Shown here: positions 24,119 through 41,667 of the stretch, piece after piece
Layout: every line of letters starts with the position of its first letter
Numbering within the stretch: the first letter of the stretch is position 1
Assembly (NCBI GenBank): GCA_965249275.1
Contig: CBDFLQ010000007.1
Span: forward strand, 768,001-832,000
Source: Dehalococcoidia bacterium
GTDB taxonomy: Bacteria > Chloroflexota > Dehalococcoidia > Plut-88900
Direction of reading: 5' to 3'
DNA length: 64,000 nt
Notes under the pieces: generated by a model
Seen by the model: the letters and a program-made list of their open reading frames with translations, nothing else
Told to the model about the DNA's origin: nothing
Database searches by the model: none
Made by a program: the position numbers and the translations under genes

Positions 24119-24802
24119 TTGCACAGACTCATCTTGTTCGACGTAGACCAGACTCTCATTAGTACCAGGGGCGGTGACCGAAAGGCACTCAACGATACAT
24201 TCCAGGAGCTGCATGGCATTGACGACGCCTTCGAAGGAATGAGTTTCGGGGGGCGGATGGACCTATCAATAATGGGCCAGGTCTATTCGCATTGGGGAGT
24301 CGCCGAAGTGGATCGGAGTCTCGGCGATTTCAAGGCACGGTATTTCGAGCTTCTGGAGCTGGTGCTGAAGGACTGGGAAATGGGTATCGTGTACCCGGGT
24401 ATACCTGAGTTGCTTAGAGCCCTGGACTCGAGAGCTGGGGTGCAGATAGGTCTGGCTACCGGGAACTTCCGGGAGTCGGCATTCATCAAGCTGCGGAAAT
24501 ATGGGCTTTACACCTTCTTTAAGGAAGGCGGCTTTGGGGGAGACCATCCGAACCGCCCCGAGGTCGTAGCCGACGCCATAGTCAAATGTCAGACACTCTC
24601 AGGGAAAGTCTACGAACGTGAGGATATTTTCGTCATCGGAGACTCGATTTCCGACGTGGAGGCGGGTCGGGCCAACGGCATAAACTCGGTAGCGGTGGCG
24701 ACGGGTCACTACGACACCACGAAGTTGAAGTCATTAGGCCCGACCTTCGTCTTCGAAGACCTGTCGGATACGGAGAAGGTGTTGGGCGCGTTGCTAGGCT
24801 AG
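24119..24802 (+). CDS. HAD-superfamily phosphatase
   Basis: LFDVDQTL, ATGN, VIGDSISDV. Confidence 0.9.
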   Translation: MHRLILFDVDQTLISTRGGDRKALNDTFQELHGIDDAFEGMSFGGRMDLSIMGQVYSHWGVAEVDRSLGDFKARYFELLELVLKDWEMGIVYPGIPELLRALDSRAGVQIGLATGNFRESAFIKLRKYGLYTFFKEGGFGGDHPNRPEVVADAIVKCQTLSGKVYEREDIFVIGDSISDVEAGRANGINSVAVATGHYDTTKLKSLGPTFVFEDLSDTEKVLGALLG

Positions 24803-24813
24803 GTGAGTGCGGA

Positions 24814-25527
24814 ATGTCCAGCTTTCAAAGACTTGTCCTCTTCGACGTAGATCTAACCCTGATCACCTCCACCGCGTGCAACCTACTCGCACTGAATAGC
24901 GCCTTTGAGCAAGTCCACGGAATACCCGATGCCTTTAATGACGTGCTGTTTGGCGGCGGACTGGACTTGCGGCTTATAACTGAGATGTATAGGAAATGGG
25001 GGCTGACAAAGGGCAACCTAGATGAACTCCCAGACCTATCGGAATTCAAGGCTGTCTACTTCGATCACCTTGAAAGGGGATTAGAGACCTGGACGGACGG
25101 CTACATATGTCCGGGGGCGAGGGAGGTACTGGAGGCGCTGGCACGGGAGCCGGGGGTGCAGCTGGGTTTGGAGACGGGCAATTTCAGGGAGGCCGCCTTC
25201 ATCAAGCTGCGTAGATTTGGGCTGGACAATTTTTTCGAAGTGGGAGGATTCGGGGGAGACTGGATGACCCGTACGGAAGTGGTGGCCGACGCTATAGCCA
25301 AGTGCCAGGCTATCTCGGGTAGGGTCTACGACCCAGGAGAAATATTTCTTATCGGCGACTCACCTTCGGACGTGGAGGCGGGGAAGGCAAACGAGATCAA
25401 CACAGTGGCGGTGGCGACGGGTCGTTGTGACACGGAGACACTACGGGCGCTGGGGCCGACGTTCGTCTTCGAAGACCTGTCGGATACGAAGAAGGTGTTG
25501 GACGCGCTCCTGGGAAGGGCGGGCTAG
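24814..25527 (+). CDS. HAD-superfamily phosphatase (tandem paralog)
   Basis: LFDVDLTL, ETGN, LIGDSPSDV. Confidence 0.9.
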   Translation: MSSFQRLVLFDVDLTLITSTACNLLALNSAFEQVHGIPDAFNDVLFGGGLDLRLITEMYRKWGLTKGNLDELPDLSEFKAVYFDHLERGLETWTDGYICPGAREVLEALAREPGVQLGLETGNFREAAFIKLRRFGLDNFFEVGGFGGDWMTRTEVVADAIAKCQAISGRVYDPGEIFLIGDSPSDVEAGKANEINTVAVATGRCDTETLRALGPTFVFEDLSDTKKVLDALLGRAG

Positions 25528-27756: not shown

Positions 27757-27820
27757 CAAAGACAGAGACCGCCCTTTGAGGCGGTCTCGACCCTACCGCC
27801 GAGGCGATAGGGGTGGTAAA
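27757..27820 (-). ncRNA. Putative small RNA plus terminator upstream of NYN2 (copy 1)
   Basis: Minus strand: CCCTATCGC-CTCG-GCGGTAGGG hairpin, then GAGACCGCC-TCAAAG-GGCGGTCTC-TGTCTTT. Confidence 0.65.
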
Positions 27821-27823
27821 GGC

Positions 27824-27852
27824 AGAATAACTACCAGACACGCATCTGTCAA
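27824..27852 (-). promoter_or_regulatory. Sigma70-type promoter for the RNA-NYN2 unit
   Basis: Minus strand TTGACA-17 bp-TATTCT; copy 2 keeps TATTCT with -35 GCGACA. Confidence 0.75.
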
Positions 27853-28224
27853 TGCACTGTGCCAGTTCATCCGCGCACACAACGAAAAGGGTGTTTCGTC
27901 GGTATTCCCGCGACGATGGATACAAAGACAGAGACCGCCCTTTGAGGCGGTCTCGACTCTACCGTCGAATCGATAGGGGTGGTAAGGACAGAATAACTAG
28001 CAGACACGAATTTGTCGCTGCTTTTACCACTTCATCTGCGCACACAACGGAAAGGGAGTTTCGTTGGTATTCCACGTGACGATAGGCTGGGTTGGGGCAC
28101 TGGTAGCTTCCTGAACGCTAAGGTATACTCGCGGGCGCATGGCCCCGCCGCCACACTATCCTGAGCGAGGGCCAAGGAGACCTCTATATTAGACGACAGT
28201 TACAGAAACCATCTTAGGCCGAGA

Positions 28225-30342: not shown

Positions 30343-31944
30343 ATGGCCTCGGAACATCTGATTCCAGATCTAATCGGCTATAACGGCAACGTCATAACCG
30401 TAGACCCCTACAAGCCTCGGGCCCAGGCCTTCGCCGTAAGGGAAGGCGCTTTCGTGGCGGTGGGAGACAATGATGAGATTAAGGATATGGCGGGGCCCCA
30501 CACCCGAAGGATGGACTTCGCGGGGAGCACGGTAGTACCCGGCTTCATCGACGCCCACATTCACGTCCTTAGCAGCGGGATTCGCCATGCCTTGATGGCC
30601 GACTGCGCCCTCCCTTCCATTGGCGAGATCCAGGAGGCCATACGCTTCAAGGCGGCGGACACGGCTGCCGGAGACTGGGTGCAGGGTTTCAAGTTCGACG
30701 ATACGAAAACGGTGGAGAACCGATTCCTCAATCGCCGAGACCTGGACGACGCCACCGGCCAGCACCCGATACTCGTGGCCCATCGGGCGGGGCACGTCTA
30801 CTACACAAACAGCATGGGGTTGAAAGCCCTCGGCATTGACAAGAACTCGCTGGACCCGCCGGGTGGACGCTACGGCCGAGACGAAGCAACTGGCGAGCTG
30901 GACGGCGTGTTGTACGAGACGGCAGCCGACCCTATCAGGTTCGAGTTGCTGTCGAAAGTCACGCCCGACGTGCGCCGAGAAGGCCTCAAGACTATTTGCA
31001 ATATGTTTGCCGCCGCCGGCCTGACCTCGGTGCACGATGCCCTGGTCACCAGCGATGACGTAGCCATCTACCAGGAAGCGTGGGAGCGGGGTGAGTTGCC
31101 ACTGAGGGTGTACATGCTGGTGCATTACAGGTATTTCGGAGGTTTCAAGGCGTCGGGGTTGAAGACGGGCTTCGGGGACGACCGGCTTCGTTTGGGCGGG
31201 ATCAAGATGGTCAGCGACGGAGCGATAGCCTCCCGCACAGCCTACCTGTCCCGACCCTACGAAGGAAGCGACAGCGATTGCGGAATCCGGGCGATTGCGC
31301 CGGATGAGCTGGAGGAGATGGTAAGAGAGGTCCACGACGCGGGCTACCAGGTCTGCGTACACGCGAACGGGGACGCTACCATAGACATGGTGCTGACCGC
31401 CTACGAGAAGGCGCAAAAGGCCAATCCTCGGCAGGACACTCGCCACAGGTTGGAGCATTGCACGCTGGTGAATCCGTCGTTGCTCAACAGGATGAAGGCG
31501 CTAGGAGCAGTGGCTACTCCCTTCTGCACTTATGTCTACTACCACGGCGAGAAGATGACATACTACGGGGAAGAGCGTGTGAAGTGGATGTTCGCACAGC
31601 GGTCGTTCCTGGACTATGGCGTCGTGGCGACGGGAGCTACGGACTACCCGCCAGGCCCCTACGAGCCGCTGCTCGGGATCCAGAGCTGTGTGACAAGGAC
31701 CGACATCAACGGCAACGTCTGGGGTGCGAACCAGCGCATATCAGTGGAAGAGGCGTTGAAGATATACACACTGCACAGCGCCTACGCCTCCTTCGAAGAG
31801 AACCTGAAGGGCTCCATCACCGCAGAGAAACTCGCCGACTTCACAGTCCTTGGCCGGGACCCGACCACCGTTGACCCACACACCATCAAGGACATCCCCA
31901 TCGAAATGACGGTGGTGGGTGGCGAACCGATCTACGAGGCGTAG
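30343..31944 (+). CDS. Amidohydrolase_3 (YtcJ-like) metallohydrolase
   Basis: PGFIDAHIH, GIKMVSDG, HANGD, RHRLEH, GATDYP. Confidence 0.92.
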   Translation: MASEHLIPDLIGYNGNVITVDPYKPRAQAFAVREGAFVAVGDNDEIKDMAGPHTRRMDFAGSTVVPGFIDAHIHVLSSGIRHALMADCALPSIGEIQEAIRFKAADTAAGDWVQGFKFDDTKTVENRFLNRRDLDDATGQHPILVAHRAGHVYYTNSMGLKALGIDKNSLDPPGGRYGRDEATGELDGVLYETAADPIRFELLSKVTPDVRREGLKTICNMFAAAGLTSVHDALVTSDDVAIYQEAWERGELPLRVYMLVHYRYFGGFKASGLKTGFGDDRLRLGGIKMVSDGAIASRTAYLSRPYEGSDSDCGIRAIAPDELEEMVREVHDAGYQVCVHANGDATIDMVLTAYEKAQKANPRQDTRHRLEHCTLVNPSLLNRMKALGAVATPFCTYVYYHGEKMTYYGEERVKWMFAQRSFLDYGVVATGATDYPPGPYEPLLGIQSCVTRTDINGNVWGANQRISVEEALKIYTLHSAYASFEENLKGSITAEKLADFTVLGRDPTTVDPHTIKDIPIEMTVVGGEPIYEA

Positions 31945-33555
31945 GTGGCTGTTATGCCATCCCCAGCCCTGACGCCCGACAAACTGATCGTCAACGCCAA
32001 CATTCTCACTGTTGACTCGCGCAATCCCCGCGCCGAGGCCCTGGCCATAAAGAACGGCAAGTTCGTGGCCGTTGGGGCTAACAAAGACGTGGAGCATTTG
32101 GCGGGGCCCGGGACCAAGGTCATCAACCTGGCGGGAAAGACCGTAGTTCCGGGGTTTATCGACGCACACATCCATGTAATGAGCACGGGGTGCAAACTCG
32201 TGTCCCGGATGGTGGACTGCGAGCTGCCGACCATCGGGCTGTTGCAGGAAGAGCTGAGGCTCAAGGCAAGGGAGACTCCGCCCGGCCAGTGGGTCATGGG
32301 CTTCAAGTACGACGATACCAAGACCCCGGAAGGCCGGATGCCGAGCCGCTGGGAGCTTGACGAGGTGAGCCGGGACCACCCGGTGATAGTGACGCACCGG
32401 GCCGGGCTCAAGAGTTCGGTCAATGAGAAGGGGCTGGAGGAATTCGGGGTGACGCGGGACTCGGCGGGGCCGATCTCGGGGCCTTACGAGAAAGACCCGG
32501 AGTCGGGGGAACCTAACGGCGTGCTGTACGAGGCAGGAGAGGAGCGAATCCGCTTCTTCCTGATGTCGCAGGTTAGTGCAGAGGAGCGGCGGCAGGGACT
32601 CAAAACGATAACCGGAATGTACGCTGCCGCTGGCCTGACCAGCGTCCACGATGCGATGGTCACCCCCGACGAAGTCAGCGTGTACCAGGACGCATGGGAG
32701 CGGGACGAGCTGCTGCTGCGGGTCTACATGCTGGTGCACGAGAACTATTTCGACACGTTTCGGAAGGCGGGCATAAGGACCGGCCTGGGGGACGACAAGC
32801 TGAAGTGGGGCGGAATCAAGCTGACCAACGATGGCGGGATAGCCACTCGGACAGCCTATCTAAGCGAGCCGTATATCGGAAGTAACGACCACGGGCTGAT
32901 GCTGTTCGAACAGGAAGAACTGGACGAAAAGATCCGGCGCATCCACGAGGCAGGATATCAGGCCTGCGTCCACTCCAACGGCGACGCGGCCATCGACATG
33001 ACTCTCCGGGCCTTCGAGCGTGCGCAGGAAGCCCACCCGAGACAAGGGGCACGGCACCGGATAGAGCACTGCACCGTGATGAATCCCGACCTATTGAGAA
33101 GGATAAGGGCGTTGGGCGTCGTCCCGACACCCTTCGGGGCATACGCTTATCAACACGGGGAGAAGATGCACTTCTATGGCGAGGAGCGGGCCAGGTGGAT
33201 GTTCGCGCATCGGGCTTTCCTGGACTACGGGATAACGTGCACGGGGGCGTCGGACTTCACGGCCAGCCCCTTCGAGCCGCTCCTGGGGATACAGTGCTGC
33301 GTTACCAGGACGGATAGCGAGGGTCGGGTCTGGGGCCCGAACCAGAAGGTGAGCATCGAGGAGGCGCTGAAGATTTACACGTTAAACGGGTCCTACGCCT
33401 CCTTCGAGGAGGGAACAAAGGGCTCGATTACGCCGGGCAAGCTGGCCGACCTCGTGGTCTTGGGCCAGGACTTGACCGAAGTGGACCCATTCAGCATCAA
33501 GGACATACCAGTCGAAATGACGATGGTCGGCGGGGAAGCGGTGTACGAGGGTTAG
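31945..33555 (+). CDS. Amidohydrolase_3 (YtcJ-like), tandem paralog
   Basis: PGFIDAHIH, GIKLTNDG, HSNGD, RHRIEH, GASDF. Confidence 0.92.
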   Translation: MAVMPSPALTPDKLIVNANILTVDSRNPRAEALAIKNGKFVAVGANKDVEHLAGPGTKVINLAGKTVVPGFIDAHIHVMSTGCKLVSRMVDCELPTIGLLQEELRLKARETPPGQWVMGFKYDDTKTPEGRMPSRWELDEVSRDHPVIVTHRAGLKSSVNEKGLEEFGVTRDSAGPISGPYEKDPESGEPNGVLYEAGEERIRFFLMSQVSAEERRQGLKTITGMYAAAGLTSVHDAMVTPDEVSVYQDAWERDELLLRVYMLVHENYFDTFRKAGIRTGLGDDKLKWGGIKLTNDGGIATRTAYLSEPYIGSNDHGLMLFEQEELDEKIRRIHEAGYQACVHSNGDAAIDMTLRAFERAQEAHPRQGARHRIEHCTVMNPDLLRRIRALGVVPTPFGAYAYQHGEKMHFYGEERARWMFAHRAFLDYGITCTGASDFTASPFEPLLGIQCCVTRTDSEGRVWGPNQKVSIEEALKIYTLNGSYASFEEGTKGSITPGKLADLVVLGQDLTEVDPFSIKDIPVEMTMVGGEAVYEG

Positions 33556-33580
33556 GAACGGGACAGGGAGGAAAGCGAAA

Positions 33581-35205: not shown

Positions 35206-36468
35206 CTAGGTGGTTGGGGCAATAGCCTCCACCGCGACACCCCGGACGTAAATCCCCCTAGTCCTTCTTTCGATAGTAGTGATGGCTATGAAGGCCAGGA
35301 AGCCGCCGGCCGCCACCGACAACACCCACTCGGGCCCGAACCTGTCCCCGAGCGCTCCATTGCCAAAGTTTGCGAAGGACATGATGCCTGCGGCGTGAAG
35401 GATGTAAATGCTGGTCACCCGGCCCCGTATTCCGTCCGGCACTACGGACTGGATGAGGATTGACGAGAGGATCATAAATCCCGCTTGAGAAGCGCCCATA
35501 AAGGCGGTGGCCAACATGGCGAGCGGAAGGGTCGGGGCGAACGCAAGGCCAAGAGGGCTGAGGCCACTCACGATCCCATTGATGAGAAGGAGCCTGCCCC
35601 TTCTGTGGGGTGTTGAGAGGGGAGCTATGACTAAGGCTATCAAAAGCGCCCCGACACCGACCGTCACGTTCATCATGCTGACGCCGAAGGCGTCTGTGCC
35701 GAGCTTGGTCTCGGAAATCACTGGGAGAAGCGACTCGAAGGACATGACGAGGGCGCAGTGGAAGATCACAAGAGCGAAGACGCGGACCAGTACCGGGTGT
35801 CGGTAGGCATAGATGAATCCCTCAGCCAGGTTCCGCAGGTGGCCTCGGGCCGATTCGATGACGCCGGTGGAACGGGTGTGGATACGCAAGACGAGGAAGA
35901 TAGCAAGGGCGTAGGCGGCCGAGGCCATTGCAAAGGCCCATCCGATGTCGAGCAGGGCCAATATCGGAGCGATGGCGCCCGGGCCCAGGGCACGGGTCCC
36001 GTGAAAGGCTGCGTTGATCAGAGCGTAGGCGTTTACAAGGTTTCTTCTCGGAACGAGGTTGGCAGTCAGTGACTCAAGACCTGCAACTTGAGTAGCCATG
36101 GCGCTTCCGGTGACGAAGGCTATCACCACCAGATGCCAAACCTGGACAAAGCCGAGCAGCACCAGGAGGGCTGTGCCAACGTGAATGAGTATCTGGAACC
36201 CCATCGCCCAGGCCAAAAGGTCACGGCGTACCATTCTGTCGGCCATGAAACCCGCGAAGACGGGGACGAGAACGTAGGGGATCATGGCGGCGAAAATGAC
36301 CAAGCCGGCGGAGGCGCTGGAATTGTTCTCGGCGAGGTCGTAGGCGAGCCAGCCTCGGGCTACGATTACGGCCCAGGCACCGGCGTCGGCGCTGAGGGCC
36401 GCAAACCAGAGGTGCCGAAAGTCTCGGTGGGCCAGGGCCGGAAGGAATCGGTTGGCGGTTAGCTGCAA
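35206..36468 (-). CDS. MFS transporter
   Basis: ALAHRDFRHLW, GFMADRMVRR, VPDGIRGRV; ~12 hydrophobic segments; own TATAAT at 36501-06 on minus strand. Confidence 0.92.
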   Translation of the reverse strand: MQLTANRFLPALAHRDFRHLWFAALSADAGAWAVIVARGWLAYDLAENNSSASAGLVIFAAMIPYVLVPVFAGFMADRMVRRDLLAWAMGFQILIHVGTALLVLLGFVQVWHLVVIAFVTGSAMATQVAGLESLTANLVPRRNLVNAYALINAAFHGTRALGPGAIAPILALLDIGWAFAMASAAYALAIFLVLRIHTRSTGVIESARGHLRNLAEGFIYAYRHPVLVRVFALVIFHCALVMSFESLLPVISETKLGTDAFGVSMMNVTVGVGALLIALVIAPLSTPHRRGRLLLINGIVSGLSPLGLAFAPTLPLAMLATAFMGASQAGFMILSSILIQSVVPDGIRGRVTSIYILHAAGIMSFANFGNGALGDRFGPEWVLSVAAGGFLAFIAITTIERRTRGIYVRGVAVEAIAPTT

Positions 36469-36600
36469 GGTTTCATGGTCCGGGTATGAGGGCTGGGGGC
36501 ATTATAGACCTTTGGGGTGGGGGGCGGCACAGCCTCGCAATGTCGCCGGGATATTCGGTTGTGGGTTGGTGTTTAAGGTCTTTTGTTTGTGTGGCGGGTT

Positions 36601-37028
36601 GGCGATGGAAGACGCTTGCTGGACGCTGCCCCCGTTCCTGTGGCTCGGGTACTCCGACGCTCTGGGGCAAGGCGTCCGGCCCGCTTTTACCGCTGCTGCG
36701 GCCTGTGGCCCTGTATACGCTGGACATGGGCAGGGACCGTCAGGGCCACCAGGTCCGAGCCCGACTCCGGGGGTTGGCTGCACCGCATAAGGGCGGTAAG
36801 GAGACTCGTCCAGCGTCCGGGTGGAGCCTCTTGCAGGCGTAATATGTCCAAGTTTGCCGGTGCGACCCGGAGTGCAGGGACCACCGGCTCCCGGCTTGAT
36901 TGAGCGGTCGGGGTACCGAGAGGGCCTCGGCGCCGGGCCTATCCGACCGCTATTCCGCTTAAAGGAGCGGCTTCTCCGTTAGGAGCCTCACATGGAACTA
37001 TAGCGAACCAGGGCGTCTTTCCATCGCC
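36601..37028 (-). ncRNA. Unassigned ~430-nt highly structured element, putative large ncRNA (strand tentative)
   Basis: Ends pair (36601-15 with 37013-28; 36634-42 with 36989-98); about ten internal stems; 8-9 bp loop pseudoknots; no credible ORF. Confidence 0.6.
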
Positions 37029-37079
37029 TGGGAGTCAGGGAAGGGGACACGGGGCCCGGTGGGGATGAGGAGATGGCGG

Positions 37080-37122
37080 TCCTCCGTAGGCGGATGTTCC
37101 ATCCTCCGTAGGCGGACGTTCC
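37080..37122. repeat. Two 21-bp direct repeats (period 22)
   Basis: TCCTCCGTAGGCGGATGTTCC-A-TCCTCCGTAGGCGGACGTTCC. Confidence 0.85.
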
Positions 37123-37260
37123 GCTTTCGCTTGTGCCGCGGGCCTGCGCGAGGGCCGTTGGGATGGGCTGAGGCGTTGAGTCCTCGGGTGGGTCGGGTGG
37201 GCTTCCCTAGTGTTTGGTTCCTCCTTGGGTTTAGGGTGAGTGATTGGCCATTCAAGGGAG

Positions 37261-37290
37261 AATATAGTACATATGTACAAGTGTGGTCAA
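37261..37290 (-). promoter_or_regulatory. Promoter overlapped by a LexA-like SOS box
   Basis: Minus strand TTGACC-18 bp-TATATT; spacer contains palindrome GTAC-ATAT-GTAC (37267-78), resembling GNAC-N4-GTNC boxes. Confidence 0.6.
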
Positions 37291-37313
37291 GGGGTTCGTG
37301 TCACATTTTAGAG

Positions 37314-37498
37314 GGGGGTACCCCCACCCCAGATCCCTCGCGGAGCCTCGGGATGACAGATGAGATGGAGTCGGTTGGAGTCGGACTGACGGGACGGATG
37401 GGCGGTGCGTGGGTCTCCCCTCGCTCGACCCTTCGACCGCGCTCAGGGTGAGCGGCCCCACCCTGGGGATGGATTCCGGCTCGGGGGCCGGGATGAAG
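37314..37498. repeat. Cluster of REP-like palindromic elements
   Basis: AGATCCCTCGCGGAGCCTCGGGATGACA (37331-58), CCCTTCGACCGCGCTCAGGGTGAGCGG (37429-55), ATGGATTCCGGCTCGGGGGCCGGGATGAAG (37469-98). Confidence 0.65.
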
Positions 37499-37599
37499 AG
37501 GGGAGTGGAAGGGAGGTGTCGGAATATCGTTTGAAGTGGTTTTCGATGGGCCTTATACTCCGAGCTTGCCGGACGGTTGGGCCGGGGGAGGGACATGAT

Positions 37600-38310
37600 T
37601 TGGAAAACCTGATAGATATTCTGGAGTCGTTTAACCGGAAGGAGCGGTTTTATCTGCTCGCACAGGCCCTTCACGGGCATGGAGGCATTGAGAATCCGAG
37701 ATTTCAGATATCCGAGTCCTTCAGGTTGGACTTGGGTGAAGCAGTTGGGCTGCATGAACAAGGGATTACTATACCTAGCGATGCTTTTGTGGGGATGGAT
37801 TATCACCTGGATTCGATAGAAGGTAGTCTCGCCCTGACACATAAGGACAAATATCAGCACTATAACAAGAATAGAAAAGTGATTTTCGCCAATCTTGATG
37901 CCTCAGTTGCTGGAACACAACAAGATATTGATTTACTTGTAGCGTTCAAAGCTGAGAGCAAGTACCATTTGGTGCTTATAGAAGCCAAGGGATATTTGAG
38001 TTGGGATACACAGCAACTGTACTCCAAGGGGGAGCGGCTAAGACAAATCTTTGGCGAGAACGGAGATACATATTGTGACGATGTAGAACCACATTTCGTC
38101 ATGATGTCTGAGAACCAGCCTAAAATAGAAAATTGGCACGCTGACCGTCAACCTGCATGTTGGCCGAAATGGATGCGGAACAATAAAGGTGCACCCCTTC
38201 ACCTAACAATGTGTCTGCCAGCTAAAACCAATAAACGCAGAGTTGAGCGTTGTGATCGAGATGGAAATCCCGCAAAGTGTGAAGGGTATTTCCATTGCCC
38301 GTCAGGCTAA
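37600..38310 (+). CDS. Hypothetical protein, PD-(D/E)xK nuclease-like
   Basis: FNRKERFYL...QDIDLLVAF...LVLIEAKG; TTG start after GGAGG; low GC. Confidence 0.65.
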   Translation: MENLIDILESFNRKERFYLLAQALHGHGGIENPRFQISESFRLDLGEAVGLHEQGITIPSDAFVGMDYHLDSIEGSLALTHKDKYQHYNKNRKVIFANLDASVAGTQQDIDLLVAFKAESKYHLVLIEAKGYLSWDTQQLYSKGERLRQIFGENGDTYCDDVEPHFVMMSENQPKIENWHADRQPACWPKWMRNNKGAPLHLTMCLPAKTNKRRVERCDRDGNPAKCEGYFHCPSG

Positions 38311-38360
38311 TCTTTGCCTATAGTCATGTCTGACGAGACAAAAACTGGGTCGCTGTAGCA

Positions 38361-39566
38361 ATGGAAAACAACACTGCCGAAGCCGTAGTCATCGGGGCGG
38401 GGATTGTGGGCAGCAGCATTACGCACTATCTCTCGGAGAAGGGGATGGGTGTGACACTGCTGGACAAGGGGTCGATCGCGGGTGGGGCCACGGGCAAGGC
38501 CACTGCGGTCATACGGATGCACTACACGAACCCCTGGGACTCGGCGATGGCGAAGATTGGCGGGGATGTTTACTCGAACTGGGGAGACCTGATCGGTGGG
38601 GAGAGCGGTTTCGTCAACTCGGGGTTTGTGTTCATTGTCGGGGAGGGCGAAGAGGAGAAGCTGCGGGCCAACGTGGACATCCTCCGACAGGAGGCCGGTA
38701 TAAACACCTACGCCCTGGACCCCGAGTTCCTTCAGGAGCTCCTGCCCGAATGGTACGTCGGAGACGTCGGGGCGGCGGCCTACGAGCCCGACAGCGGATA
38801 CGGCGACCCTCACTCCGCTGCAACGGGCTTCGTGCGGCGGGCGCAGGAGTTGGGAGCGGAGGTGTCGCAGGGAGAAGAGGTGCTGAGGATTATTGAGGAG
38901 GGGGGCCGGGTGACGGGGGTCGAGACTAGCAAGAGGACTATTTCAACGGAAAAGGTGGTCTTGGCGGGCGGAGCGTGGTCGAAGGGGTTGGGGGCCGGGG
39001 TGGGACTCGACCTGCCAATCAACTGTATGATGCTATCTATTGGGGTGCTGAAGAGGCCGCCGGTGCTGCACGGGAGTCATCCCGCCTGCATTGATGCGGC
39101 GAACGGCATCTATTTCAGGCCCGAGCCTGGAGAGTTGACCCTGCTCGGATTCAGCAGTGTCGTCGACAGGCATGAGTCCCCCGAGAACCTGGACCCCGAC
39201 AACTACGATACTGAGCCCGACATGAGATGGTCCCTGCGGACCAGCCGCAGGATCGCGTCCCGGATACCGGCGATGGAAGACGCCGCATGGGTGAGGTCGT
39301 GGAGTGGGGTGGACGGCAACACGCCGGACGGACACCTGATTCTGGATAAGGCGCCGGGAATAGATGGCTTGTACCTGGCGGTGGGGATGAGCGGCACGGG
39401 TTTCAAGGTCGGACCCGCGGTTGGCAAGTGCATGTCGGAGCTGATCGTGGATGGGAAAGCGTCGAGTGTCGACATCCGGCCCTTCCGGTTGGCTCGCTTT
39501 GAAGAGGGGGAGGTACTGGTGGGGAAGCATGAATACAACTACTATCTGTTCAAGCAGGATGAATAA
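38361..39566 (+). CDS. FAD-dependent oxidoreductase (sarcosine oxidase beta/DadA family)
   Basis: IGAGIVG, GATGKATA, YEPDSGYGDP, TPDGH, GMSGTGFK. Confidence 0.9.
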   Translation: MENNTAEAVVIGAGIVGSSITHYLSEKGMGVTLLDKGSIAGGATGKATAVIRMHYTNPWDSAMAKIGGDVYSNWGDLIGGESGFVNSGFVFIVGEGEEEKLRANVDILRQEAGINTYALDPEFLQELLPEWYVGDVGAAAYEPDSGYGDPHSAATGFVRRAQELGAEVSQGEEVLRIIEEGGRVTGVETSKRTISTEKVVLAGGAWSKGLGAGVGLDLPINCMMLSIGVLKRPPVLHGSHPACIDAANGIYFRPEPGELTLLGFSSVVDRHESPENLDPDNYDTEPDMRWSLRTSRRIASRIPAMEDAAWVRSWSGVDGNTPDGHLILDKAPGIDGLYLAVGMSGTGFKVGPAVGKCMSELIVDGKASSVDIRPFRLARFEEGEVLVGKHEYNYYLFKQDE

Positions 39567-39581
39567 AGGGGGAGACTGGGA

Positions 39582-40595
39582 ATGAAAGATGTCAGTTTCA
39601 TAACCGATTATGTCGGAATCCCGACCTTCTACAATGCTCCGCAAATTAAGCTGGATGACGTGAAAGAAGGCATGGCGGTGGTCGCAGGGGCACCCATCGA
39701 CATGGGCATCCTGTTCATGAGGCCCGGGACGCGTTTCGGGCCGAGGAGCATCCGGGAGGCGTCCCTGATGTACAGGGGTCTGCAGGACGTCGCCTCCGAA
39801 AAAACCTCGGTGAACGTGGACACGCACATCGCCCGGCGCTTGAAGCCGCAGATCAACATCGGTGACCTGGGCGACTTCCACGTTAACCCGCAGGACATCA
39901 TGCAGACGACGGATTCGGTGATTGAGGGCATCGCCGACATAGTGAAGCTGGGAGGGGTACCGGTCCTGCTGGGTGGTGACCACTACCTCGCATATCCGGG
40001 TTTCGAGGGGTTTGCCAAAGGGTTGATGGAGCGGGGTGAGAGCCCGAAACTAGGCTATGTGCACATAGACACCCACACCGACTTCCGGGACAGATACGGG
40101 GATTTGGGGCGGTACAACCACGGCACATGCGCCCGACGGATCAGTGAGAACTCCGTGGTGTCCTACAAGAACATGAGCTGGGTCGGGCTGAACGGGACGA
40201 TAATGGACGCCGACATCTACCGGATGTACAAGAAGCAAGAGCTGAAGATGTCGACGGCCAATGACGTTCGTACGCATGGGATGGAGCACGTGCTTCGGCA
40301 GGCTATAGAGGAAGCGGCAGACGGAACGGACGCGGTCTACGTGAGTGTGGACATCGACGTCGTGGACGCATCTCAGGCACCCGGGACAGGGGCACCGGTT
40401 TTCGAAGGCATTCAGGCGACGGACCTGCTTGAGGCGATGTCAATATTGAGCGAATACGAATGCGTGAAGGCGATTGACCTTTGCGAGGTGTCCCCGCCTA
40501 TCGACTCGAACGGCAGGACAGCCTACCTGGCGGCCAGTGCCCTCGTCGGGTTCCTGGGCAATTACCTGTTCGACGTGGTGGACCTGGACAGCTAG
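39582..40595 (+). CDS. Ureohydrolase (agmatinase/arginase family), copy 1
   Basis: RPGTRFGPRSIR, GGDH, DTHTD, NHGT, SVDIDVVD, APGTG, DLCEV. Confidence 0.92.
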   Translation: MKDVSFITDYVGIPTFYNAPQIKLDDVKEGMAVVAGAPIDMGILFMRPGTRFGPRSIREASLMYRGLQDVASEKTSVNVDTHIARRLKPQINIGDLGDFHVNPQDIMQTTDSVIEGIADIVKLGGVPVLLGGDHYLAYPGFEGFAKGLMERGESPKLGYVHIDTHTDFRDRYGDLGRYNHGTCARRISENSVVSYKNMSWVGLNGTIMDADIYRMYKKQELKMSTANDVRTHGMEHVLRQAIEEAADGTDAVYVSVDIDVVDASQAPGTGAPVFEGIQATDLLEAMSILSEYECVKAIDLCEVSPPIDSNGRTAYLAASALVGFLGNYLFDVVDLDS

Positions 40596-40653
40596 GCAGA
40601 GATATGACCGTAGTGGTCGGGGCCGGGGCTCGACAAGAACTAGGAGACATGAC

Positions 40654-41667
40654 GTGAAAGATATTGGATTTATTACCACGTACGTCGGGATCCCGACTTT
40701 CTACAACGCTCCGTATATCGGGTTGGAGGACGTGAAAGAGGGGATGGCAGTGGTGGTGGGAGCGCCAATCGACAACGGCATCCTGTTCCCAAGGCTCGGG
40801 GCCCGGTTCGGCCCGAGAAGCATCCGTGAGGCGTCCCTTATGTACAGGGGTCTCCAGGACGTTGCCTCCGAAAAGACCTCGGTGAACGTGGACACGCACA
40901 TCGCCCGGCGGCTGAAGCCGCAGCTAAACCTGGGGGACATGGGTGACTTCCACGTTAACCCGCAGGACATCATGCAGACAACGGAATCGGTGATCGAGGG
41001 TATGTCGGACATCGTGAAGCTGGGAGGGGTCCCGATCCTGCTCGGCGGCGACCACTACCTGGCATACCCGGGTTTCGAGGGGTTTGCGCGGGGGCTGATG
41101 GAGAAGGGTGAGAATCCCAAGTTGGGGTACGTGCACATAGACAGCCACACGGACTTCCGGGACGGGTACGGGGATCTGGGACGGTACAACCACGGCACCT
41201 GCGCCCGAAGGATCAGCGAAAACTCCGTGGTGTCCTACAAGAACATGAGCTGGGTCGGGTTGAACGGCAGTGTTATGGACGCCGACATCTACAGGATGTA
41301 CAAGAAGCAAGAACTGAAGATGTCCACGGCGAAGGACGTTCGGACCAATGGGATGGAGCACGTGCTTCGGCAGGCGATAGAGGCAGCTGCGGACGGTACG
41401 GACGCGGTCTACGTCAGCGTGGACATCGACGTTGTCGACGCGTCCCATGCGCCCGGGACCGGAGTGCCGGTATTCGAGGGCATCGGGGCGAGGGACTTGC
41501 TGGAGGCAATGGCGATACTGAGCGAATACGACTGCATCAAGGCGCTGGACCTGTGTGAGGTGGCCCCACCCCTCGACCCGACCGGCAATACACCGTACCT
41601 GGCAGTCAATGGCCTCCTCGGCTTCCTGGGCGACTACCTGTACGACGTGGTTGATTTGGACAGCTAA
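40654..41667 (+). CDS. Ureohydrolase (agmatinase/arginase family), copy 2
   Basis: Close paralog; GGDH, DSHTD, SVDIDVVD; GTG start after AGGAG. Confidence 0.92.
   Translation: MKDIGFITTYVGIPTFYNAPYIGLEDVKEGMAVVVGAPIDNGILFPRLGARFGPRSIREASLMYRGLQDVASEKTSVNVDTHIARRLKPQLNLGDMGDFHVNPQDIMQTTESVIEGMSDIVKLGGVPILLGGDHYLAYPGFEGFARGLMEKGENPKLGYVHIDSHTDFRDGYGDLGRYNHGTCARRISENSVVSYKNMSWVGLNGSVMDADIYRMYKKQELKMSTAKDVRTNGMEHVLRQAIEAAADGTDAVYVSVDIDVVDASHAPGTGVPVFEGIGARDLLEAMAILSEYDCIKALDLCEVAPPLDPTGNTPYLAVNGLLGFLGDYLYDVVDLDS

Follow-up and report, generated by a model that had tools for sequence, protein, structure and literature searches.

The 428-nt stretch at positions 36601-37028 of the 64,000-nt window analyzed here, part of a Dehalococcoidia metagenome-assembled genome (MAG), had been proposed in a preliminary description to be a stand-alone gene for a new large noncoding RNA (ncRNA) or ribozyme. 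We found instead that it makes up the core and closing clamp of one unit among the 53-54 present in the window's own genome (G000; 2.9 Mb in 7 contigs, 87% complete). The stretch is almost certainly the interior of a mobile, non-autonomous repeat. Taken as a whole, the unit of about 0.8 kb is probably an element of the MITE (miniature inverted-repeat transposable element) type that acts as a mobile promoter-leader, with the stretch as its core. The preliminary description had itself named a MITE as the finding that would speak against an ncRNA gene, and its signs were all detected: numerous copies, terminal inverted repeats (TIRs), 5-bp target-site duplications and clean empty sites. The reading as a lone ncRNA or ribozyme gene was therefore not upheld.

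A search of G000 with positions 36560-37080 returned 55 matches, 10 of which were near full length at 78-100% identity. The conserved C block of the unit was found 54 times, one copy being cut by a contig end, and both halves of the clamp were present in all 53 testable units, 310-542 nt apart. A full unit measures about 0.75-0.9 kb and comprises TG...CA terminal inverted repeats, an A block, the clamp enclosing a core of about 400 nt, a B tail and the C block. The invariant part of the clamp reads GGCGATGGAAG...CTTCCATCGCC around the core, and a clamp of 15-25 bp was present in all units.

In many units the left end, TGTACTCGTTCGGTAGGTTAGTGACAC, and the right end, ...GTGATGTCACCCCTCTATGTGAACGGGATCA, form imperfect inverted repeats with TG...CA termini. 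In G000, the pattern for the left end matched 22 times and that for the right end 17 times, with 0 matches for reversed-pattern controls. The ends were found in six of the nine genomes of the genus, with left-right pairs 730-880 bp apart. Target-site duplications were sought by comparing the five bases outside each end in 27 units bounded by both repeats, with 739-1213 bp between the ends, and by running a shifted control. The flanks matched at all five positions in 14 units (control, 0), at four in 8 (control, 1), at three in 1 (control, 5) and at two in 4 (control, 3); no unit matched at one position or at none, compared with 15 and 3 in the control, respectively. Two loci provided empty sites. 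At locus 1, G000 carries GCATT[TG...CA]GCATT where G003 and G001 lack the element and show one GCATT, and at locus 2 it carries CCCTG[TG...CA]CCCTG where the same two genomes have a single CCCCG or CCCCA, again without the element. The units thus share with MITEs their many dispersed copies, terminal inverted repeats, fixed-length duplication, precise empty sites and absence of a transposase gene. MITEs, however, are usually well under about 500 bp. Because the units are long for that class, we filed them as MITE-like, non-autonomous derivatives of an insertion sequence (IS).

All nine genomes of the genus contained the unit, with at least 35 to 67 matches each, whereas 32 genomes of the family and class that lie outside this genus had no match. 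At the level of the order, 9 of 12 genomes carried it, and the three without it belong to other genera. A 22-base C-block pattern run over the genomes of 185,579 species yielded at least 79 loci; among the matches listed, all were on six closed chromosomes of the genus. From a unit length of about 0.8 kb and about 53 units in 2.9 Mb, we estimate that the units make up about 1.5% of each genome of the genus.

We collected 146 distinct cores, which fell into 18 sequence clusters. Representatives of 11 core types folded strongly on both strands, with z-scores of -1.4 to -8. The outer 11 bp of the clamp were kept in all types, whereas the inner rod was type specific, for example GACGC/GCGTC versus GGTCC/GGACC. 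Three shared loci were compared, and in all three the cores differed between orthologous flanks. The window locus carries a core of cluster 0 in G000, of cluster 3 in G002 and G005, and of cluster 5 in G006. Locus 1 has cluster 1 in G000 and G002 and cluster 9 in G005, and locus 2 has cluster 0 in G000, cluster 9 in G005 and cluster 3 in G002. At locus 2 the CCCTG duplication is common to the three species, indicating that the element inserted once and that its core was replaced afterwards. The clamp halves (15 and 21 identical bases) are where similarity breaks off, and the flanks are mosaic. These patterns suggest that cores are exchanged by ectopic gene conversion between copies through their conserved flanks, and a dedicated exchange mechanism could also be at work. 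Two other scenarios were rejected. Inversion of the core at the clamp would not fit with 2674 long same-orientation matches versus 2 inverted ones, both artefactual (one locus read on both strands). Entry of the core into an empty clamp as an independent mobile element was discarded as well: the type-a core of the window copy lay inside units in all 10 of its BLAST copies in G000 and in all of its 34 distinct sequences genus-wide, and none of the 53 units had an empty clamp.

We looked for signals that could direct transcription of the unit. A promoter-like site, TTGACC-18-TATATT, is located on the minus strand at 37290-37261 and has 10 of 12 consensus matches; the region contains 2 such sites, compared with 0.2 expected. 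The pattern of TTGAYN, a 17- or 18-nt spacer and TAnnnT was kept in 52 of 54 C blocks, with varying spacer sequence, and an exact AAGGAGG was found 25-39 nt past the -10 box, also in 52 of 54. In two other units the same site, with 11 of 12 matches each, was the sole promoter-like site inside the element. As the promoter-like site and AAGGAGG have been kept while the spacer and neighboring sequences vary, purifying selection on expression is indicated. A small open reading frame (ORF) following AAGGAGG was ruled out, the consensus having no ATG, GTG or TTG for 60 nt and the copies differing by indels. No terminator-like site was found after the core on either strand, in the window copy or in two other units.

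Units are mostly located upstream of genes. With ORFs called crudely, 40 of 53 units have a gene beyond the A block that runs in the direction of the promoter-like site, and in 34 of 53 the gene on the other side of the unit is divergent. When only ORFs with high G+C content at third codon positions were retained, 38 of 50 were co-directional (binomial p 3e-4). Placement of all units upstream of a single gene family, in the style of IS leaders, was rejected, since the flanking ORFs are diverse. At three loci (L014 2045-2072, the right flank of L002, and window 36503-36508), a host promoter-like TATAAT box was noted by eye within about 10-30 nt of the unit, which hints at an insertion preference for promoter regions. 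With units right beside a host promoter at these loci, target choice could explain part of the orientation bias. The left TIR of canonical units also contains an inward-facing terminator-like hairpin followed by a T-run (L002 1411-1431, plus strand), which could stop flank transcripts entering on the window-plus strand.

The structure drawn in the preliminary description was rebuilt from the window sequence. Its 12 nested and 3 pseudoknot helices were each fully complementary, the closing rod (36601-15/37013-28) had a single bulge as described, and the 9-mer GCAGGGACC was indeed found at 36730-38 and 36874-82. The third pseudoknot (36626-31/36728-33) overlaps the CGCT/AGCG helix by two bases. 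The predicted folding energy of 36601-37028 was -213.3 kcal/mol on the plus strand (z -2.99, with 0 of 100 dinucleotide shuffles as good) and -199.0 kcal/mol on the minus strand (z -3.25, 2 of 100 as good). The suggested lack of kinship with known RNA families was borne out, as a search of the 64-kb window against Rfam 15 gave nothing on the element at gathering thresholds; the families covered include RNase P, tmRNA, SRP, 6S, group I and II introns, HEARO, GOLLD, ROOL, OLE and raiA. With E values of up to 10, positions 36300-37700 gave three weak matches at chance level, all far under the gathering score, and 14 loci with other core types had no Rfam match at E up to 0.1. No signs of catalysis were found in this analysis.

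To follow the fold through evolution, we used an alignment of 34 homologous type-a cores, 68-99% identical (alignment A1). The structure was paired in 90.0% of cells, compared with 34-43% when the partners were slid, a percentage inflated because the structure was derived from one of the aligned sequences. Helix 1, the closing clamp, was paired in 97.8% of cells. Fifteen pairs were changed on both sides, versus 9.0 +/- 1.8 in shuffled alignments (0 of 500 reached 15) and 5-8 in slid ones. A single pair of the first pseudoknot (36717-25/36808-16) covaried, being U-A in 21 sequences, C-G in 6 and C.A in 7. The type-a fold is thus conserved with some covariation, although the support is moderate. 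The stretch may well be transcribed.

A transposase able to move the units was sought among the insertion sequences of G000, which contains 22 rve-type IS matches. A 1056-bp IS with a 329-aa rve ORF, present in 11 copies, has TGT...ACA ends and a 5-bp duplication. The units resemble it by their TGT termini, their 5-bp duplication and their inverted repeat: 17 of 27 positions are identical between the IS repeat TGTAAGTGTTAGGTAATTCGTTGACAG and the left end of the units, as counted by eye. Unlike the IS, they have no transposase gene, and their interior shares nothing with it. The name IS481 for the 1056-bp IS is based on its rve domain, TGT ends and duplication length rather than on a database assignment. 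The IS481-family transposase of this IS is the likely source of activity in trans. The only long TIR pair, 2.07 kb in G002, was rejected as the autonomous parent, because it is a unit in which an unrelated rve IS (423 aa), bounded by inverted repeats of its own, is nested. At this locus (L065, G002:C1:659100-661500) the nested IS is inserted between the -35 box of the unit and its right TIR. The rve-type ISs fall into three families, with 11 copies of the 1056-bp IS (329 aa), 8 of a 1344-bp IS (401 aa) and 2 of a 1231-bp IS (about 380 aa). Their sites in G000 include C7:509900-511100, C6:65607 and C7:168912 (loci L148-L159), and several adjoin units. Pieces resembling the ends of the 1344-bp and 1231-bp ISs (TCACCCTCACCCTAGCCCTCTCCCAT...) lie directly against the right ends of many units, suggesting that there is a second MITE family.

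A model can be proposed for how such a unit might work. An IS481-like transposase would move the units in trans. Each would be transcribed on the window minus strand from its own conserved sigma-70-like promoter. The predicted transcript would begin with a leader carrying the ribosome-binding-like AAGGAGG, which starts no ORF, and would continue through the core of about 400 nt into the neighboring gene. The core would be held shut by the invariant 11-bp clamp together with the variable rod, and its fold, maintained in the RNA, would make it a compact leader module closed by the clamp. A double-strand-specific RNase could plausibly cut the long clamp, and AAGGAGG is a plausible 5' stabilizer. 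The whole unit would thus form a portable promoter-plus-leader, in which cores might diverge freely and be swapped by ectopic gene conversion, provided that folding and clamp closure persist.

Several observations weigh against the promoter-leader model or the mobility on which it is built. Canonical inverted repeats were recognized in only about 20 of the 53 units of G000 and not in the window copy, and no match to the inverted-repeat patterns was obtained in G004, G006 or G007. Pairing of left and right TIR matches in six genomes brought up no autonomous element that has these ends. Covariation was modest: a second measure, the number of further pair types, gave 40, versus 42.6 in shuffles (472 of 500 were as high), and provided no support. 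Rod halves stripped of the invariant part paired only slightly better with their cognate partners than with non-cognate ones (-24.6 versus -20.9 kcal/mol, standard deviation about 5). The orientation bias could reflect target choice near promoters or selection against antisense read-through rather than any benefit. Of 23 sequencing runs listed, 20 contained part of the stretch and none of these was of RNA, so that transcription, strand and processing are deduced from the DNA.

The choice of strand is itself divided. In favor of the minus strand, helix columns of the type-a cores with A.C mismatches only, which would be G.U on the minus strand, numbered 32, versus 16 with G.T only. Among pairs predicted on both strands in eight clusters, wobble-type columns also leaned to the minus strand, 39 versus 27, and the type-a consensus folded at -108.0 kcal/mol on it, compared with -92.8 on the plus strand. 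On the other side, the loop of the CTCC-NNNN-GGAG hairpin keeps a G..A pattern on the plus strand (GTTA in 19, GTAA in 11, GTGA in 9, GAAA in 2 and GGGA in 1 of 54 occurrences). Nine distinct GNRA tetraloops were counted on the plus strand versus three on the minus strand, which has three more loops of the UNCG type, and single-sequence folds were slightly more stable on the plus strand. When the clamp was taken by itself, its wobble pairs (114 of plus type versus 85 of minus type) gave no guidance, as the alignment is unreliable past about 25 nt. The minus-strand preference of the preliminary description thus agrees with the only promoter-like site, whereas the G..A tetraloops contradict it. 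Because of these tetraloops our call is not firm, and we lean towards the minus strand as the functional one.

These uncertainties bear on a different reading of the same mobile element, in which its fold has no role in RNA, the hairpins acting at the DNA level or being leftovers of the element's origin, and the promoter is a relic of a parent IS. We hold this to be unlikely. Single-strand or cruciform structures, for example, might serve transposition, replication or core-swapping recombination. This reading would account for structure scores that are equally strong on both strands, for a clamp carrying both kinds of wobble-type mismatch, for the conflict between strand tests, and for clamp halves lying exactly at the borders of the swapped cassettes, and it agrees with the lack of RNA among the listed runs. 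It is harder to reconcile with a promoter-like site and AAGGAGG retained in nearly every copy across all core types. Moreover, the core branches into many local hairpins, in which some compensatory changes are seen, and is no simple fold-back. Cores are also never inverted between the inverted clamp halves, which disfavors frequent recombination at the clamp itself. Conversely, the units might be mobile RNA genes whose products, large structured molecules of a new class, act in trans. The variable core would do the work, for instance as a guide, decoy or regulator directed at the transposase or at host targets, or as a ribozyme, which amounts to a multicopy version of the proposal in the preliminary description. 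Although each unit has its own conserved promoter-like site, cores of at least 18 strongly folding types stay within about 310-560 nt, core orientation is fixed, the conserved clamp resembles a processing stem and none of the types tested matched Rfam, we find this idea improbable. Since neither strand has a terminator after the core, a discrete RNA could arise only by processing. The units are linked to no protein partner gene, their flanking genes being diverse metabolic ones, and neither a motif conserved across core types nor a catalytic hallmark was seen. The inverted repeats, duplications and similarity to IS ends account for the copy number without any RNA role. It is equally doubtful that the cores, of at least 18 interchangeable types of about 400 nt, would be processed out at the clamp and would steer or restrain an IS481-like transposase or aid core exchange.

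Chance pairing in GC-rich intergenic DNA, or a protein-coding stretch, would be a further explanation. The G+C content of the cores, 64%, inflates pairing, and several ORFs of 53-118 aa overlap the stretch. Nevertheless, folding reached z-scores of about -3 against dinucleotide shuffles, and the helices were kept in 34 diverged copies well beyond the level obtained with slid partners. The three ORFs that run across the core had no Pfam match, and single-base indels between close copies break every reading frame. We consider this explanation highly improbable. The promoter-leader model is the one that we favor.

The units were compared with known mobile and repeated elements. In a review (PMC2229807), the Correia/NEMIS MITEs of Neisseria are described as forming stem-loops in transcripts that are cut by RNase III, with effects on neighboring genes, and bacterial MITEs as carrying putative promoters. 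The units resemble Correia/NEMIS elements, as portrayed there, in being non-autonomous and intergenic, in numbering tens to hundreds of copies, and in having terminal inverted repeats and target-site duplications. They differ by their size, 0.75-0.9 kb versus 105-155 bp, that is about 5-8 times longer (PMC2229807). They differ further in having a multibranched core of about 400 nt between paired ends and termini that resemble those of an IS481-type IS, and in that at least 18 unrelated core types occur in one set of flanks and are exchanged between copies. By analogy, RNase III cutting and an effect on the neighboring gene in the Correia/NEMIS style may serve as a working model for the unit.

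Structured RNAs are also produced by other mobile elements, such as the HEARO/omega RNAs of IscB and TnpB elements and the bridge RNAs of IS110. Like them, the units are multicopy, strongly folded, noncoding and tied to a mobile element, and in both cases the adjacent protein gene may be absent. Unlike them, the units match no Rfam family, HEARO included, and their ends and duplications are of the DDE cut- or copy-and-paste kind. No TnpB, IscB or IS110 gene was found among the ORFs flanking the units. Mosaic intergenic repeats go by names such as BIMEs, NIMEs and RIMEs. Such repeats are mentioned as a class in PMC3184786. The intergenic region 36544-37510 is likewise a patchwork of modules, including a 22-nt mini-repeat and pieces that resemble repetitive extragenic palindromic (REP) sequences. 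Rather than a chain of short palindromes, however, its main module is one large transposable unit whose ends are defined. A 5' mRNA stabilizer known as STAB-SD occurs in Bacillus cryIIIA. The perfect Shine-Dalgarno-like AAGGAGG of the unit, which has no start codon after it and lies at about 30 nt from its predicted 5' end, is reminiscent of STAB-SD, as an analogy only.

Size, a conserved promoter-like site with AAGGAGG, a clamped multibranched core, many core types and core exchange together make the units unusual among known MITEs. No account of such elements in Dehalococcoidia was found in the literature searched, which was covered in part. Recognizing the folded, Rfam-negative stretch of about 430 nt in this Dehalococcoidia MAG as a member of a repeat family removes a false lead, and we suggest masking the family before ncRNAs are sought in this lineage. 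With an active promoter, a mobile promoter-leader cassette might drive or modulate about 50 genes in each genome of these uncultured marine bacteria, and core exchange would amount to natural modular swapping of RNA domains.

The window copy of the unit, about 0.8 kb long, spans about 36514-37330. Its left end (36514-36543) and right end (37291-37330) have diverged: the G-rich GGGGTGGGGGG (36514-24) mirrors CCCCCACCCC (37321-30) as inverted G/C runs seen by eye, and the canonical left inverted repeat of other copies is unrecognizable. No duplication could therefore be demonstrated for this copy. Homology with the element-free orthologous locus of G003 stops at about 36522. The right end contains GTGTCAC (37298-37304), common to the right inverted repeat of other copies, followed by GGGGGGTACCCCCACCCC. 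The A block (36544-36600), the conserved flank adjoining the clamp, is rich in T and G, or in A and C on the minus strand. Repeat coverage climbs to 10-19 copies from 36544, and the block was aligned in 30 units. The 5' half of the clamp (36601-36615) reads GGCGATGGAAGACGC, its outer 11 bases being near-invariant in every unit, and the 3' half (37013-37028) reads GCGTCTTTCCATCGCC. Between them, the structured core of type a, cluster 0 (36616-37012), is the body of the finding in the preliminary description. The B tail (37029-37079), a conserved flank with about 34-36 BLAST copies, terminates in the invariant GAGGAGATGGCG.

Between the B and C blocks lies a tandem pair of the 22-nt mini-repeat, CCTCCGTAGGCGGAYGTTCC... 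(37080-37122), which is missing at this junction from most other units (gap in 8 of 10 aligned copies). The mini-repeat (CCTCCNNAGGCGGAYNTTCC...) has 47 copies in G000, versus 0 for a reversed-pattern control; those at C7 805081 and 805103 correspond to window positions 37081 and 37103. It is sometimes present as two or three copies in tandem, and its site within units varies, being either between the left TIR and the A block or at the B/C junction. The C block extends on the minus strand from 37123 to about 37310. Its leader portion (37123-37260), of which 54 copies were aligned, would be transcribed if the promoter fires. It includes AAGGAGG (complement of 37220-37226), a hairpin that varies and the conserved CGAGGACTCAACG...CCCATCCCAA. 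The promoter-like site (37261-37290) reads leftwards into the B tail, the core and the A block.

Outside the element and downstream of it with respect to the promoter-like site, a gene for an MFS_3 transporter (35206-36468, minus strand; Pfam E 9e-38) is co-directional with that site and is conserved in all nine genomes of the genus. As expected for a mobile element, the unit itself is not conserved at this locus: it is present in G000, G002, G005 and G006 and absent from G001, G003, G004, G007 and G008. The difference between filled and empty versions is a complex block of 1.8 kb. G006, whose MFS gene is 80% identical, has the unit, and the closer G003 (92%) is without it, implying loss or independent gain. 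In five sister genomes the MFS gene is separated from a DAO oxidoreductase gene (38361-39566 in the window) by a gap of about 140-260 nt. In G000 this gap, compared over window positions 36523-38359, contains the unit, short repeats and an ORF (37405-38310) that has no Pfam match and is shared only in part with G005 and G006. BLAST coverage within G000 revealed that the repeat modules of 36544-37510 have 10-70 copies each. Those to the right of the unit (37331-37510) are short, with 30-70 genome copies each, for example ...CCCTCGCGGAGCCTCGGGATGACAG...; they resemble REP-type palindromic repeats and flank other units too.

Elsewhere in the window, a thiamine pyrophosphate (TPP) riboswitch (RF00059) was identified on the plus strand at 2051-2165, with 60.6 bits, above the gathering score; the window had no other Rfam match at that level. 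At 27757-28073, a repeat of about 165 nt occurs twice in tandem, the two copies being 89% identical and carrying a GC hairpin, GAGACCGCC...GGCGGTCTC. Diverged direct-repeat pairs of 200-300 nt with 70-81% identity were detected in 24437-25514, 30902-33556 and 39571-40942, with spacings of 716, about 1611 and 1072 nt, respectively. They are probably tandem paralogous genes.

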